A stretch of DNA of 64,000 bases from Minisyncoccia bacterium (GCA_038211765.1 JBBQVG010000001.1:1837-65836); one strand, 5' to 3'; positions 32,465 through 37,104 are shown, numbered from the stretch's first letter. A program made the numbers and translations. Notes: generated by a model not told the origin, from the sequence alone.

Positions 32465-33070
32465 ATGAAAATATTTGCTTTCATCGATGTGCAAAATACT
32501 GAAACAACAACACTAAAAGTGTTGAAATTTGCTCTTGACCATGAGAAATTATTTTCTTATTTAAAAAACAAATGGAAATGTGAAAAAATATTTTTCTATC
32601 CTGGGATTCAACATGGTGATGATACTCGTGGGGAATTATTTACTAAACTTGCGGAACTTGGTGCGGTTGTACGACCAAAATATTTTTTCACATATAAAAA
32701 TGAAGACAAAATCACCATCACAAATTGTCCAAAGTGTAATACTGAAATTACACAGAGAATAGAAACAGGTTACTCGTGGAAATGTAATTGCGATGTCGAG
32801 TTGACAGCAGATGTGCTCGACCACGCAGACAAAGACACCGAGATATTTCTATTCTCTGGTGATGGTGATTTTGAATTCTTAATTCAAAAAGTTATAGCAA
32901 AAGATTGTAGAGTTTCTATTGTTTCTAGCGCGAAAAGAGTGCCCAAGGGACCTAGGTATTCTACTTCTAGATTGTCAACAAAACTTCGTAAGCTTACTCA
33001 AGCGAGCGGTTCACCTGTAAGATTTATTGAGATCGATAACCTGAAGTTTAAGATCAAAAAAGAAGCCTAG
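32465..33070 (+). CDS. NYN (LabA-like, PIN-fold) domain protein with Zn-ribbon insert
   Basis: 'MKIFAFIDVQN' and 'IFLFSGDGDFEFLI' are the NYN Asp motifs. 'CPKCNTE...WKCNCD' is a zinc ribbon. Confidence 0.6.
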   Translation: MKIFAFIDVQNTETTTLKVLKFALDHEKLFSYLKNKWKCEKIFFYPGIQHGDDTRGELFTKLAELGAVVRPKYFFTYKNEDKITITNCPKCNTEITQRIETGYSWKCNCDVELTADVLDHADKDTEIFLFSGDGDFEFLIQKVIAKDCRVSIVSSAKRVPKGPRYSTSRLSTKLRKLTQASGSPVRFIEIDNLKFKIKKEA

Positions 33071-33210
33071 AAAAGGAAAAAGCCGCGAAGCGCGACTTTT
33101 TCTAAGGACGATATAAGTATATATGAATTACAGAAAAAGTCAATCAAAAAACAAATTTTGTAAAAAAACTAGTGTTTGTTTAGGTAAATTGTGGTATAGT
33201 ATATACACTG

Positions 33211-34134
33211 TTGAGTTTTATTATTAAGGTCATATTTAACTTAGTCATTACTAGCCTTATGAAATATAACAAGGGTTTTATAGGAATAGGTATGATAGTA
33301 GCAATTATCGCAATCTTGGCTGTTGGCGGTGGCGTTGTTTATTATGCAACAAAAAGTCCAGCCCCTTCTTCAAACATAAAAGAAAATAGTTATCCACCGG
33401 TTACGCAAAATCAAAATTCGACAATTCCGCCAACAAATATAAATACTCAAACTCAACCGGTTACTGCTAAACCAGCTGCTTCAATAAGTGTTTTGTCACC
33501 AAGTGCTGGAGAACGCATATCGGCTGGATCAGCATTTTCTATAAAGTGGAACAGTGCTAATACATCTAATCGTGTATTACTTATACTACACCTTTCTAGT
33601 ATTCAGCAAATCATTGCTCCTGACTCCGGAGCTGATGTTACAGTAGTAAATAATGGATCGTTTACATGGAAAGTACCGAAGTCATTTGATGAGTTGAATA
33701 GTACACCAGTTGATCATGATTATATTGCATATATAACTATACAAGACTCACAAAATAAAAATATAGTTGGACAAAGTAAAAATTTTATAATCACTCCCTC
33801 GGCTACAACCGCCAACCCTTCTATCACTGTCACTTCGCCGAATGGTGGAGATGTTTGGAAAATTGGGCAAACGTATTTAGTAACAACTAAATCTAGTGGG
33901 AATCTTGGCACAAAAACTATAAGGCTTAATAGGTATTCAGATGATGGCGTCCGTGTCGGATCAGAAACAATTGGAACTACTGAAGACGATAGCTTTTCGT
34001 ATAAAGTTCCATCTGGAATTGATCAAACTCGGGGAATGGCTGCAAGGTACAAAATCCAAGTGATTATAAATAAATATGACTCCGGTATGGGTGTAGCTGA
34101 TGAAAGTGATAATTACTTCACGATAAATAATTAG
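33211..34134 (+). CDS. membrane-anchored protein with two tandem beta-rich repeats (Ser/Thr-rich GPI-anchored/Kre9_KNH-like)
   Basis: TM 'FIGIGMIVAIIAILAVGGGVVYY'. Repeats 'SISVLSPSAGERISAGSAFSIKWNSAN' and 'SITVTSPNGGDVWKIGQTYLVTTKSSGN'. Confidence 0.5.
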   Translation: MSFIIKVIFNLVITSLMKYNKGFIGIGMIVAIIAILAVGGGVVYYATKSPAPSSNIKENSYPPVTQNQNSTIPPTNINTQTQPVTAKPAASISVLSPSAGERISAGSAFSIKWNSANTSNRVLLILHLSSIQQIIAPDSGADVTVVNNGSFTWKVPKSFDELNSTPVDHDYIAYITIQDSQNKNIVGQSKNFIITPSATTANPSITVTSPNGGDVWKIGQTYLVTTKSSGNLGTKTIRLNRYSDDGVRVGSETIGTTEDDSFSYKVPSGIDQTRGMAARYKIQVIINKYDSGMGVADESDNYFTINN

Positions 34135-34269
34135 AAGGTAGAGTAATCTAAGTAACGGAGCGAATTTCCACGATTTTATTTTATTTCCCAGAAACGGCGA
34201 GGATTTTTATGTGAATAGGAGAGCACAAAATAAATCTGTGTCCCAGTTCCGCATAAATTCGATGTAAGT

Positions 34270-34445: not shown

Positions 34446-35217
34446 CAGATTCAAATCATCACAAGGACTGTGATTCGAAGCGGCCCACTTCTTGAGGAAG
34501 TAGGCCGCTTCTCTACAGAGCATGAGGCTCAATCGGTTGGAATGATCCATAAGCAGATTTCAGTGAGCTAGAGACGTCAGAAATACGACTTAAATCACGT
34601 CTGAATAGAGGGCTTAACGGAGCCACGCTGGAAATTGGACAGATATTGACTTTTGTATTGTAATATGTTAAACTTCTCGTAGAGCTTTGAAAGCAGTGAA
34701 CCAACCAAATGGAAAGGAAATTCGATGAAGAATTTGATTGAAATTGTGTACATCTTCTCTTTGTTGGGTACGGTCGGTGGAATGATATTTTTCTTCTTGC
34801 CATTAGGCTTCGGTATAATGGCGATCAAGGAAAACGTCTGGGACAACCTGATGAGGGAAGGATTTCATTTCAGACATTGGCAGTGCATATGGGTCGGCCC
34901 ATTGGAGACAGTGGCTTGGGCATGTTTCCCAGTTTGCACCGTCGTGTTCTCGATAATGACTATCTGTGGGTACCGATTCATACCGTAAACCACGTGATTA
35001 GTCTAGGCAAATTCGTGGGGCAAGGTTCTATTCCTTGCTCTACTCAACTGGATTCATAAGCGAACAATTATGATTGTGAGTCCTGGGAGGATAGTTCTTT
35101 GAAAACTGCTTGCCGTAGCCATAGCCACGAGGTATTGGATTTTCGATACTTCTTGGCTATGGCTACCTAAACGGTAGTCTTGATTCAACAAATCAACAAA
35201 AACGAAAGGAAACAAGT

Positions 35218-36090
35218 ATGAAGACTACTAAATATAAAATCGCGCTAGCAAGCGCATGTGGTGCGGCTATCGGTTACTGTTTCGGGACAACACTGTTGTC
35301 TGGAGCATGGCTGATTCTGGCGGCATTGTTGGGCGGAGCCTGCGGATGGATCATCTTCGATCCTCGTGGGTTCGGGAAGGCTTTCTCGCAAGCCTTGCTG
35401 GAGGTTAGCAGTGAGGCCAGTCTTAAATTGCAAGAATTGTGGGCCGAACCGTGGAGGAAGATCCTACCGCGAGCCATCAGGTTTACGGTTGATCCGCTTC
35501 TGATGCTCCAGGTAATGGGGACGATAATGGCATTCATCGTAATTCCATTCACAAAGCCTGGCAATCTATTGACTGCTTGTGCCGCGTGCTACGTAATAAC
35601 CCTTGGGCTAGGTTCGTTTTTGTCCATAGCCTTTTTCATCCAGGAGATTGGCGACAAGGCAGCTAGGGTAAAAGTGCTTGATCCCGAACGAACCTGTTAT
35701 CTATTCACTGGTAAAATGTCCGCATTCAAGTTCCTTGCCTTGACCAATCCGATTGTCCTACCGTTCACAGCGCTATGGCTTCTGATCAAGGCTATGTATC
35801 ATTGCGCTAAGGGACTTATCTGGATTGTCCGCCGCATTCCGCTCATCACCAGATTCTGCTGGCTCGTCACTGCAAAGACGTGCGTGTTGGCCCACAACAA
35901 TGGCCGGCTCGCTAGTTTCGCAGGAGCCAGCATCGGTGCCGTTATTGGTGTAATTGCAGGACACCTCATTATCGCCATGGCGGTTGGTGCGGCGATTGGC
36001 ACTCTGGCACATTATGTGGGTGCCATCTTCCCGAATGCCTACATCAATATTCTCGTCCAAAATCTCGAAACCGAGAAGACGAGACTTTGA
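35218..36090 (+). CDS. hypothetical polytopic membrane protein (7-8 TM)
   Basis: 290 aa, highly hydrophobic (e.g. 'TLLSGAWLILAALLGGACGWIIF'). Antisense ORFs there are spurious. Confidence 0.5.
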   Translation: MKTTKYKIALASACGAAIGYCFGTTLLSGAWLILAALLGGACGWIIFDPRGFGKAFSQALLEVSSEASLKLQELWAEPWRKILPRAIRFTVDPLLMLQVMGTIMAFIVIPFTKPGNLLTACAACYVITLGLGSFLSIAFFIQEIGDKAARVKVLDPERTCYLFTGKMSAFKFLALTNPIVLPFTALWLLIKAMYHCAKGLIWIVRRIPLITRFCWLVTAKTCVLAHNNGRLASFAGASIGAVIGVIAGHLIIAMAVGAAIGTLAHYVGAIFPNAYINILVQNLETEKTRL

Positions 36091-36159
36091 CCGGCAAAAT
36101 GAAGCAAGCAGTTAGAGTTTGTCACGACCCGCTCTACGTTCAACCGTAGGCGGGTTTTT

Positions 36160-37104
36160 TCACATCTTTTTACTTTCAAAATCAATCAAATCTGTGAAGA
36201 AGTCAGTATTTGGCGCATACGCATATTTATGAGAAAAATTTACATAATATAAATTATGCTTAAAAATATCTCTTTTATTATCCAGTTTTTGATACTCGAC
36301 TTTTCCGTGCATATCTTCAGTAAATGGAAAAGATAGAATAATGAAAACTCTAGGAGACAAATTAAAGATTTGTGTTTTAAGTAACCATGCCCCACGCAAC
36401 ATATAATTTTCTGGAATGCGTGGATCCATTAAGTCGATCACCGCTTCATCACTTGTTATAAAAGGATAATCTGTAGTATTTAGAAATATTTTCCATTCCT
36501 TATGGGTCAGTGTATTTGCATGACCAACATCAAAAGCTCTTTGTGTTGCATATGACGTTTTTCTAGTGACTCTCTGTAGTCCGTCTTGTGACACTTTGTC
36601 TGTGATTTCTTTATCCCGCTCTTTGTCATTAAACATATCGGGGTATTTTCTTGAAACCTCATTATAAATGTGCTCACTAACCGCAGGTTGCATCCAATCC
36701 ACGAGTTTTTTAAGCATATTCATTGATTCGTTTCTAAAGTTCTGACCTCGAAAGAAAAAATTGGCAATGATGCAGGAAAGACCGAATCTATCAGAGTCAC
36801 ATAAATTTTCTTGGTTCAAAAAAGACTTCTCGATTCTCTGTATGTTGTCTCCGTACCAAGTCTCAAGATTTCCAAACGCAGCTTCTACTGCCTGACTGTA
36901 CTCGTCTTCTACGCCTAGCTCTAGAGCATAGTGAAAATGTCCACTGCACACCGATTTAATCGACTGATTCTTACTTAAAACCTTAATCTGGTCACAGTCA
37001 AAAGCCTTAAGCTTATTTTGGTCATTAAAAATAGAAAAATTCTTTAGATGTCTTTGAGGTACAATATGTTGATTTTTCGTTACGTGATTTTTCACTATTA
37101 GCAT
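36160..37104 (-). CDS. hypothetical protein, DUF4238-like (N-terminal H-[IY]-VPQ motif)
   Basis: 'NQHIVPQRHLKNFSI' resembles the DUF4238 N-terminal 'HYVPQ..L..F' motif. 27% GC gene. Confidence 0.4.
   Translation of the reverse strand: MLIVKNHVTKNQHIVPQRHLKNFSIFNDQNKLKAFDCDQIKVLSKNQSIKSVCSGHFHYALELGVEDEYSQAVEAAFGNLETWYGDNIQRIEKSFLNQENLCDSDRFGLSCIIANFFFRGQNFRNESMNMLKKLVDWMQPAVSEHIYNEVSRKYPDMFNDKERDKEITDKVSQDGLQRVTRKTSYATQRAFDVGHANTLTHKEWKIFLNTTDYPFITSDEAVIDLMDPRIPENYMLRGAWLLKTQIFNLSPRVFIILSFPFTEDMHGKVEYQKLDNKRDIFKHNLYYVNFSHKYAYAPNTDFFTDLIDFESKKM

Follow-up and report, generated by a model that had tools for sequence, protein, structure and literature searches.

A small variable islet, probably built from unrelated pieces and including a candidate solitary DUF4238 defence gene, downstream of a serine tRNA gene in a Paceibacteria-like genome

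The 5.1-kb segment described here lies within a 64,000-nt stretch of DNA (the window, i.e., the whole stretch that was analysed) from an uncultivated CPR/Paceibacteria-like bacterium, and it is probably a small, variable islet, located 3′ of a tRNA-Ser gene and made up of at least three independent pieces rather than one functional system. The islet genes were probably drawn from separate sources and would not form one machine; they include a gene for a predicted NYN-family RNase with an inserted Zn ribbon (NYN-ZnR), a gene for a multi-pass membrane protein, and a gene for a DUF4238 protein that may act in anti-phage defence. Because DUF4238 is the only one of the islet families with proven anti-phage activity, we regard the segment as an ordinary small variable island.

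The four genes adjoining the serine tRNA gene are real. ORF prediction placed the three genes named in an initial annotation exactly where that annotation had put them, whereas an Ig-like protein (33211–34134) and a small ORF with two transmembrane (TM) segments (34725–34988) had been overlooked. An island-like context beside tRNAs had also been proposed, in agreement with the GC content of the segment, which at 40.5% (compared to 46.0% for the window) is the lowest at this length anywhere in the window (0.4% of same-size windows were equally low), and with the presence of tRNA-Ser genes at 32166–32253 and 30401–30492. The first of these (plus strand; identified by ARAGORN, with an Rfam tRNA score of 56.4 bits, and aligned with other tRNA-Ser genes) has the unusual anticodon ACT and delimits the islet on its left side. 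The low GC content is due to the NYN-ZnR (34.8%), Ig-like (36.5%), and DUF4238 (34.7%) genes; the membrane protein gene (50.9%) is unlike these three. Similar to tRNA-linked genomic or defence islets, the segment abuts a tRNA 3′ end, is low in GC, and carries strain-variable cargo; unlike these islets, it contains no integrase and no direct att repeats and is flanked by the tRNA trailer in inverted copies. An integrase-mediated tRNA-gene island was rejected, as no tyrosine or serine recombinase is present among the islet ORFs and the flanks are inverted, not direct; a 24-nt match that resembles a direct repeat arises because inverted repeat a contains a palindrome. More broadly, neither the ORF list nor Pfam searches revealed a recombinase or transposase within the islet or next to it.

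The inverted repeats that had been noted to bound the segment are real and unique within the window, and they resolve to two inverted copies of a ~194-nt tRNA-Ser trailer. The intact copy, T′ (37153–37346, minus strand), was delimited by inverted-repeat and collinearity analysis; it holds a perfect, GC-rich 15-bp hairpin (37193–37244) that, with the A and T tracts on its flanks, resembles a bidirectional terminator, and its DNA fold has a free energy of −36 kcal/mol (z = −4.0). A 2-kb insertion (E1), which carries the NYN-ZnR and Ig-like genes and has inverted ends of 53–56 nt, interrupts the left copy at CTGGGG in its terminator hairpin loop. Of the two trailer parts separated in this way, the first, T_left (32253–32381, plus strand), includes repeat a (32253–32316), which pairs with 37283–37346 (88%), and ends at the CTGGGG core. 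The second part, T_right or repeat c (34359–34432, plus strand), comprises CTGGGG, the hairpin loop, the 3′ stem half, and a T-tract tail and is 92% complementary to 37153–37224; T_left and T_right together align collinearly with T′. The left end of E1, b (32373–32428, plus strand), is 56 nt long and 98% complementary (53 nt at 100%) to the right end, b′ (34286–34341, minus strand), which was identified by its inverted-repeat match to b. This layout puts the NYN-ZnR and Ig-like genes, as one insertion, apart from the membrane protein and DUF4238 genes; the former two probably arrived jointly as E1, which would have landed at CTGGGG in the terminator hairpin loop of the tRNA trailer.

The nested inverted repeats could instead mark a cassette-type element, mobile or invertible, that is active and has not been described before; in it, a circular NYN-ZnR and Ig-like molecule with a palindromic junction (b′-20 nt-b) would recombine at CTGGGG into the hairpin loop, while the T and T′ copies would permit inversion of the DUF4238 segment. 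Such an element would fit the occurrence of CTGGGG at all four junctions (4/4), the collinear rejoining of the split trailer with the intact copy, the identity of the E1 ends (53/53), which suggests a recent or maintained event, the exact coincidence of the inner edge of b with the limit of homology to a Nomurabacteria NYN locus, and the hairpins formed by the b′/c junction and by T′. We nevertheless consider it very unlikely, as the only recombinase-like candidate is a RAYT-like gene located 19 kb from the islet and accompanied by unrelated REP-like hairpins, the repeats were found neither elsewhere in the 64 kb nor in ~110 fetched related loci, no long inverted repeats flank homologues elsewhere, and viral contigs yielded no match beyond chance 18-mers; a one-off local rearrangement or inverted duplication fits the data equally well. 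E1 resembles TIR-bounded non-autonomous insertions (MITE-like or composite) and integron cassettes in its long, near-perfect inverted ends, its interruption of a hairpin at a short shared core, and the imperfect, attC-like palindrome that would arise at the junction of a hypothetical circular form; unlike both, it has no transposase or IntI and no other copies, and its 53–56-nt ends are not common to the Nomurabacteria copy of the cargo. The integron R′ consensus is GTTRRRY; an integron gene cassette was rejected, as the junction core (CCCCAG...CTGGGG) does not fit this consensus and inspection of the ORF list revealed no integrase in the window.

The first gene of E1 (32465–33070, plus strand) encodes the 201-aa NYN-ZnR, and the initial description of an NYN domain fused to a Zn ribbon was supported by profile, structural, and alignment evidence. 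The protein matches Pfam PF01936 above the cutoff (E = 3.4e-12), the best solved-structure matches to its AF2 model (pLDDT 90) in Foldseek are the LabA-like NYN protein 2qip (TM 0.71) and the MARF1 NYN domain 5yaa (TM 0.65), and the Cys pattern of the Zn ribbon (C88-x2-C91...C107-x-C109) is inserted inside the NYN domain. Among 26 aligned homologues, C39, C88, C109, D133, and D135 are invariant and C91, D8, and N11 are nearly so; the catalytic Asp residues are intact. HMM match, fold, and conserved acidic residues thus place this predicted nuclease with the LabA-like/NYN PIN-fold nucleases (PF01936; e.g., Vibrio parahaemolyticus VPA0982, 2qip, and MARF1, 5yaa), with which it shares the motifs IDxxN and GDGDF; it differs from them by the Zn ribbon at residues 88–109 and a conserved C-terminal extension (residues 155–200), and is only ~20% identical to 2qip. 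We propose that NYN-ZnR may be a PIN-like endoribonuclease that depends on metal and probably uses its Zn ribbon to hold RNA.

NYN-ZnR is monocistronic, with its own promoter-like site (TTGAGA-18-TAATAT, TG-extended; 32429–32458, plus strand) and a hairpin terminator (33076–33102), and from promoter to terminator this cassette is 85% identical in DNA to a Nomurabacteria locus (L003). The second gene of E1 (33211–34134, plus strand) encodes a 307-aa protein with Ig-like repeats (Kre9_KNH and Big_7 in Pfam) and one N-terminal TM segment, predicted to be secreted or N-terminally anchored, and shares only its 5′ end with the neighbour gene in L003. A type II toxin-antitoxin system (PIN/VapC-like) was rejected, as NYN-ZnR is monocistronic and no conserved small neighbour or antitoxin-like partner was present in any genome examined. 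The NYN-ZnR subfamily is very small, with 239 clusters at 90% identity and, among 1.84 billion searched, 41 representatives at E ≤ 1e-30. Given this rarity, the low GC content, the match to Nomurabacteria, and the unrelated sites at which homologues occur, we interpret NYN-ZnR as a separate, rare, horizontally moving gene.

A toxin/defence-style role had been proposed for the cargo as a whole, and it is conceivable, if unlikely, that NYN-ZnR represents a stand-alone conflict gene, for example an infection-activated RNase acting against phages or in mobile-element maintenance, in which case the islet would hold two independent defence genes. The patchy, CPR-centred, cross-phylum distribution of the subfamily (CPR and Bacteroidota), its low GC content, the unrelated genomic sites of its homologues, and the intact catalytic residues are consistent with such a role, as are the positions of some homologues: one in Saprospiraceae is flanked by genes for a tyrosine integrase and an S24 repressor and belongs to an element that also carries a TrwB-like ATPase, one (L046) lies near a TrwB-like gene, and one (L004) lies near T4SS pilins. 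PADLOC also returned a single match, weak and covering 49 residues, to a generic NYN model. However, across the five genome types for which context was available, NYN-ZnR has no recurrent R-M, TA, or defence neighbour, its neighbours in CPR genomes are mostly housekeeping genes (PheRS, EF-Ts, GyrB, RNR, and NDK), IMG/VR and phage records contain no close relatives (viral matches ≤33% identity), and its strong conservation (93% aa identity between genera; mean column identity of 48%) fits a constrained cellular enzyme better than an arms-race gene.

The protein encoded at 35218–36090 (plus strand; 290 aa) contains ~6 hydrophobic segments by TM prediction, as expected from its initial description as a polytopic membrane protein, and has glycine-zipper-like C-terminal helices. 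It matched no family in Pfam, PADLOC, and other profile searches, and its homologues form only 10 clusters; in the three genome types for which context was seen, these homologues are set among housekeeping genes, without DUF4238. A hairpin with a 21-bp stem (inverted repeat I6; 35115–35166, plus strand) is located upstream and is conserved along with the gene in L051, with DNA homology extending over 35115–36158 (70%); the terminator (36133–36150) is common to this gene and the convergent DUF4238 gene. In the syntenic locus L108 (SmpB-tmRNA...FtsH-tRNA-Ile-[membrane gene]-RecG-tRNA-Ser), the orthologue is found between tRNA-Ile and RecG. Based on this position next to RecG and its native GC content, the islet copy looks like a relocated native gene, probably a fast-evolving envelope gene shifted here by local rearrangement. 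Between E1 and this gene lies the 2-TM ORF (34725–34988, plus strand; 87 aa, by ORF and TM prediction; repeat family D1), whose RBS-like GAAAGGAAA motif resembles the one preceding the membrane protein gene; no homologue of this ORF was found in any fetched locus.

The islet genes had been described as a set, and NYN-ZnR, the membrane protein, and DUF4238 could act together as a single new defence or toxin system of several genes, with DUF4238 as sensor, NYN-ZnR as effector, and the membrane protein as second effector or anchor. Their location within 5 kb, inside one inverted-repeat pair and beside a tRNA, the conflict-type domains in two of the three genes, and the convergent arrangement of the membrane protein and DUF4238 genes around a common terminator could be taken to suggest this. 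Co-occurrence, the check proposed with the initial annotation, largely refutes it, however: tblastn of all islet proteins found homologues of the NYN, Ig-like, and membrane proteins in 0 of 37 DUF4238 loci (only ~17 of which include flanks of ≥2 kb), and DUF4238 was found neither at NYN homologue loci, which represent five different genomic settings, nor at membrane-protein homologue loci; NYN-ZnR, the membrane protein, and DUF4238 likewise never co-localised at these loci. The genes also belong to different repeat-defined modules and lie on different strands, NYN-ZnR is a self-contained promoter-ORF-terminator unit, and the membrane protein gene has native GC and another ancestral position. 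One system is thus scarcely credible, and we retain the reading of the islet as an assembly of separate pieces.

The last gene (36160–37104, minus strand) encodes a full-length, 314-aa protein with all family-invariant residues present. Its initial assignment as DUF4238-like was substantiated by a match to Pfam PF14022 (E = 1.6e-22; 80.7 bits vs. a 27-bit cutoff) over model positions 1–278 of 281, and precomputed annotation assigns this domain to each of its 64 close homologues (64/64). This is the only domain of the protein, and its many invariant His, Asp, Glu, Arg, and Lys residues suggest that it may be an enzyme. The gene has no operon partner: upstream lie the T′ repeat and TspO, which is divergent, and downstream lies the convergent membrane protein gene. 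Its product is 77% identical to the L013 copy, while RecG of L013 is only 52% identical, which, like the low GC content of the gene, is a sign of horizontal transfer.

Known defence genes are recurrent neighbours of DUF4238 homologues. Relatives with 44–80% identity are located inside type I R-M operons in six loci, flanked by HsdR, HsdM, or HsdS (L029, L032, L033, L035, L041, and L107), and in four loci DUF4238 follows an EcoRI-like methylase and GmrSD; in Vogelbacteria, an HTH-Ymh-EcoRI_methylase-GmrSD-DUF4238 array is found directly 3′ of a tRNA-Ser gene. Other neighbours include DprA/ShosA-like, HEPN, SocA-Panacea, and NOV_C proteins, and the relatives are often near tRNAs. The family includes a single-gene E. 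coli system, known in DefenseFinder as Rst_DUF4238. A single DUF4238 protein, from a P2-prophage hotspot, provides strong T7 resistance in E. coli (Rousset 2022, PMC9122126), and DUF4238 is also fused to TIR in defence proteins (PMC11350192); together with the CPR relatives, this accords with the initial suggestion that the family occurs in abortive-infection-like islands. The islet protein resembles that of Rousset 2022 (PMC9122126) in its length (~300 aa), its PF14022-only architecture, its location in a variable hotspot, and the presence of relatives in defence islands; unlike that system, it resides in a CPR host rather than a prophage, has no tblastn match among 50,697 phage records, and has no real match in PADLOC 2.0 (just spbK at E = 0.007), and its link to the tested defence protein thus rests on Pfam-level membership and context. 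As its relatives are linked to R-M or to methylase and GmrSD and a family member protects against T7, the islet DUF4238 is most likely a solitary, horizontally acquired defence gene, which, like other “single DUF4238 protein” genes, would protect against phages on its own.

PrrC/EcoprrI and RloC are the paradigm of abortive-infection genes that reside within type I R-M operons. Although DUF4238 has no sequence or fold relation to these proteins, its relatives in the six loci similarly lie between or beside hsdM, hsdS, and hsdR, as is typical for back-up effectors that guard restriction. The islet copy is solitary beside a tRNA, with no adjoining R-M genes in the window, whereas its close relatives lie inside R-M operons. 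By analogy, DUF4238 may have a guard role, serving in a second line of defence as an effector or sensor of the abortive-infection type, which would fire once a phage evades or inhibits restriction.

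The segment 3′ of the tRNA-Ser gene at 32166–32253 (plus strand) runs from the start of its first ORF exactly to the start of a minus-strand ORF (32465–37104) and contains five genes, not three as in the initial annotation. These encode an NYN (PIN-like) protein with an inserted Zn ribbon (NYN-ZnR; 32465–33070, plus strand, 201 aa), an Ig-like protein that is either secreted or anchored (33211–34134, plus strand, 307 aa; Kre9_KNH match at 6.8e-8, weak Big_7 match), a small 2-TM ORF (34725–34988, plus strand, 87 aa), a predicted multi-pass membrane protein (35218–36090, plus strand, 290 aa) with no family match in Pfam, NCBIfam, PHROGs or PADLOC, and a DUF4238 protein (36160–37104, minus strand, 314 aa). 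Two family assignments made on first reading were borne out: NYN plus Zn ribbon by Pfam (E = 3.4e-12), Cys conservation and structural matches to the NYN fold, and DUF4238 by a Pfam match across the entire model (E = 1.6e-22). The top protein matches of this islet come from Vogelbacteria, Nomurabacteria, Yonathbacteria and "Paceibacterota" MAGs and place the host among uncultivated CPR/Paceibacteria-like bacteria; an Rfam scan of the islet returned only tRNAs, sub-threshold matches being due to chance. We conclude that the islet is an ordinary mosaic whose DUF4238 gene adds a new CPR representative to an already known family of single-gene defences. The suggested defence-style character holds for the DUF4238 gene, but not for the membrane-protein gene, which is a native gene that was relocated.

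The islet genes had also been viewed as one set, a view refuted by the lack of co-localisation across loci of the DUF4238, NYN-ZnR and membrane-protein families. Two collection scans with a DUF4238 alignment, together with look-ups, yielded 37 DUF4238 loci; with every islet protein as tblastn query, homologues of the NYN, Ig-like, small-ORF and membrane proteins were found in none of them. The NYN-ZnR contexts inspected (Nomurabacteria, represented by eight contigs, two other CPR genomes, and Saprospiraceae) had neither DUF4238 nor the membrane protein nearby. Homologues of the membrane protein form only 10 clusters and adjoin NUDIX/response-regulator/UvrB, RecG/FtsH or HNH/sortase/Mur-ligase genes, with no DUF4238 nearby in the loci inspected. 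The three families are mutually independent. A single multi-gene system was rejected by this co-occurrence analysis of the loci above, which removes a false lead: catalogues should not list NYN RNase, membrane protein and DUF4238 together as one three-gene system.

The membrane-protein gene (GC content 50.9%) is a native gene relocated by local rearrangement. A related locus in GCA_013558375.1 (L108) and the window have a common gene order, SmpB – tmRNA ... FtsH – tRNA-Ile – X – RecG – tRNA-Ser(GCT), with RecG 63% and FtsH 61–69% identical (tblastx). In L108, X consists of a gene encoding a 276-aa protein and an orthologue of the membrane-protein gene (38% identity); in the window, tRNA-Ile and RecG are directly adjacent, and the membrane-protein gene is part of the islet at a distance of 8 kb. 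A second related locus (L051) is homologous across 35115–36158, from the upstream hairpin through the gene to its terminator, and the homology ends at the DUF4238 stop codon. The tRNA-Ile kept next to RecG in both genomes (27193–27267, plus strand, in the window; 6999–7074 in L108) has the anticodon TAT; UAU isoleucine tRNAs are uncommon in bacteria. A perfect 52-nt direct repeat (21067–21118 and 21734–21785, spacing 667 nt) was also identified just 3′ of the tmRNA gene, in a stretch missing from the syntenic L108, and may be the trace of a small insertion there.

The NYN-ZnR gene forms a unit with a promoter-like sequence (TTGAGA-18-TAATAT, 32429–32458) and a predicted hairpin terminator (33076–33102). 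Among 26 homologues, the motifs FIDVQN (D8, N11), CDV (D110) and GDGDF (D133, D135) are invariant or nearly so, and Cys39, Cys88, Cys91 and Cys109 are conserved; Cys107 is replaced by Ser in about half of the sequences. An AlphaFold model (pLDDT 90) has structural matches in the LabA-like NYN protein 2qip and the NYN domain of MARF1, with the Zn ribbon as an insertion at residues 88–109 and an apparently intact active site. The subfamily has few members, with 239 clusters at 90% identity and, among 1.84 billion proteins, 41 representatives at E ≤ 1e-30, of which many are fragments. The block 32431–33143 is 85% identical in DNA and 93% in protein to a Nomurabacteria locus, where it is flanked by the S component of an ECF transporter and unrelated genes; other CPR copies occupy unrelated positions, adjoining PheRS/EF-Ts or NDK/CYTH and a TrwB-like ATPase. 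A Saprospiraceae homologue (59% identity) has a tyrosine integrase on one side and an S24 repressor on the other, in an element that further encodes a large helicase, another integrase and a TrwB-like protein. T4SS-pilin arrays or a DUF8128/TrwB-like ATPase were observed a few kb from two CPR homologues (L004, 12951–15350; L046, 8369–11110), which hints at linkage with conjugative-type elements. Neither an antitoxin-like partner nor a recurrent defence neighbour was present in the loci inspected. Its small subfamily, low GC content (34.8%), unrelated sites and presence in the Saprospiraceae element thus mark NYN-ZnR as an accessory, horizontally moving gene for a predicted RNase, one of a small, well-defined and highly conserved family. 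The protein may act in defence, in the upkeep of mobile elements or in RNA processing.

Three inverted repeat pairs were identified in the islet: a/a′ (32253–32316 and 37283–37346, 88% identity), b/b′ (32373–32428 and 34286–34341, 53 nt identical) and c/c′ (34361–34432 and 37153–37224, 92% identity). Three nested elements with terminal inverted repeats could be drawn from these pairs, a reading that we replaced by a simpler one in which the tRNA-Ser trailer is present in two inverted copies and one copy is split. In local alignments, the stretch from 37346 to 37153 on the minus strand (T′) forms one unbroken unit of ~194 nt, which equals the trailer at 32253–32381 (T_left) joined to 34359–34432 (T_right). 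T′ contains a perfect 15-bp GC-rich hairpin (37193–37244; fold z = −4.0) flanked by A and T tracts; in the left trailer, the hairpin loop is split at CTGGGG by E1, a 1,977-bp insertion (32382–34358) that contains the NYN-ZnR and Ig-like genes and has the b/b′ repeats as its ends. The sequence at its right junction is b′-CCCCAG-20 nt-CTGGGG-c. In order, the locus therefore comprises tRNA-Ser, T_left, E1, T_right, then the small ORF, membrane-protein gene and DUF4238 gene, and finally the inverted T′. A classic integrase island with direct att repeats was rejected, the direct 24-mer being the palindromic start of the inverted repeat. A phage or plasmid origin was likewise rejected: phage and IMG/VR collections contained only distant NYN proteins (≤33% identity), a tblastn search with DUF4238 matched no phage record, plasmid matches were only distant, and the islet repeats shared only chance 18–19-mers with viral contigs.

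It is also conceivable, at long odds, that CPR bacteria have an undescribed recombination system that targets hairpins, with the NYN-ZnR and Ig-like genes as one of its cassettes, and/or that NYN-ZnR represents a new conflict gene that acts alone and targets RNA. Such a cassette would use a long palindromic attachment site to recombine at CTGGGG into terminator-hairpin loops, and the conflict gene would spread between CPR and Bacteroidota on such elements. No recombinase was found in or beside the islet, the repeats were absent from all related loci inspected, and no long inverted repeats flanked homologues elsewhere; an active cassette mechanism is unsupported, and we consider it improbable. 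In our reading, the repeat anatomy arose at this locus alone, through insertion and inverted duplication.

None of the three repeat pairs recurs elsewhere within the window, which contains other repeats. A dispersed family of ~30–70 nt (…GATTCACCTACTGGGCTGATT…) occurs at four sites in both orientations (14078–14150, 63539–63611, 52919–52955 and 7766–7795). At 56474–57061 (minus strand) and 57053–57267, an ORF beginning MSEYHHIYNRGAHK... presumably encodes a REP-associated tyrosine transposase (RAYT) and has REP-like repeats, both direct and inverted, on its flanks; these are unrelated in sequence to those of the islet. The tRNA-Ser gene whose 3′ end (32253) borders the islet has an anticodon, ACT (A34; loop TTACTAA), that is unusual among bacterial serine tRNAs. 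In its body it is similar to Ser(CGA) and Ser(TGA) tRNAs from relatives. It could be a duplicate that has mutated, or it could decode in an unusual way; 1.7 kb upstream there is a normal Ser(GCT) gene. This second tRNA-Ser gene (30401–30492) has a weak third relic of the trailer start at its 3′ side. Between both tRNA-Ser genes, an ORF (30608–31273, plus strand) with a DUF3800-like N-terminal FIDSSG motif has a match to PDC-M04A, a PADLOC candidate family (E = 1.3e-7), so that the variable region, low in GC and possibly related to defence, may begin at ~30.5 kb.

The DUF4238 gene has a GC content of 34.7%, versus 46% in the window, and its product is 77% identical to a copy from a genome with a RecG of only 52% identity, a contrast pointing to horizontal transfer. 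Many polar residues (H13, H19, D67, E74, E81, R90, E92, R119, R124, K202, D219 and E220) are invariant among 27 homologues and suggest a catalytic function. A Vogelbacteria relative (78% identity) is the last gene in a row (HTH – Hypoth_Ymh – EcoRI-like methylase – GmrSD [DUF262+HNH] – DUF4238) located immediately 3′ of a tRNA-Ser gene; the methylase and GmrSD pair accompanies DUF4238 in four distinct loci. At six loci (L029, L032, L033, L035, L041 and L107), DUF4238 is found between or adjoining the type I R-M genes hsdR, hsdM and hsdS. IMG/VR contains a single DUF4238 locus, itself a type I R-M operon. Other direct neighbours include DprA/ShosA-like, HEPN, HTH-SocA/Panacea antitoxin and NOV_C proteins, and a tRNA gene is located 0.1–2.5 kb from many copies. 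In four loci (L014, 381–2633; L015, 594–2468; L016, 64–687; L026, 2330–4585), a gene for a ~750-aa protein with no Pfam or PADLOC match is located directly 5′ of DUF4238 and overlaps its start; these may represent an uncharacterised DUF4238-containing operon. A DprA/ShosA-like gene was also observed 3′ of DUF4238 in L014.

Back-up abortive-infection effectors such as PrrC are sited inside R-M operons, as are these DUF4238 relatives, and T7 carries the anti-restriction protein Ocr. Given this siting and the presence of Ocr in T7, the most economical hypothesis is that DUF4238 may back up restriction, which it would guard. Rousset et al. (PMC9122126) have shown that one DUF4238 protein, encoded in a P2 hotspot of E. 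coli, confers strong T7 resistance on its own, and TIR-DUF4238 fusions have been described among E. coli defence proteins (PMC11350192). The copy in the window has no R-M genes beside it and matches no PADLOC model; judged from its sequence and context, it is most likely a solitary defence gene of a known kind. CPR bacteria are thinly covered in defence-system catalogues, and in Paceibacteria-like genomes this DUF4238 subfamily circulates by riding along with type I R-M and MTase/GmrSD modules; it is also able to stand alone beside a tRNA gene.
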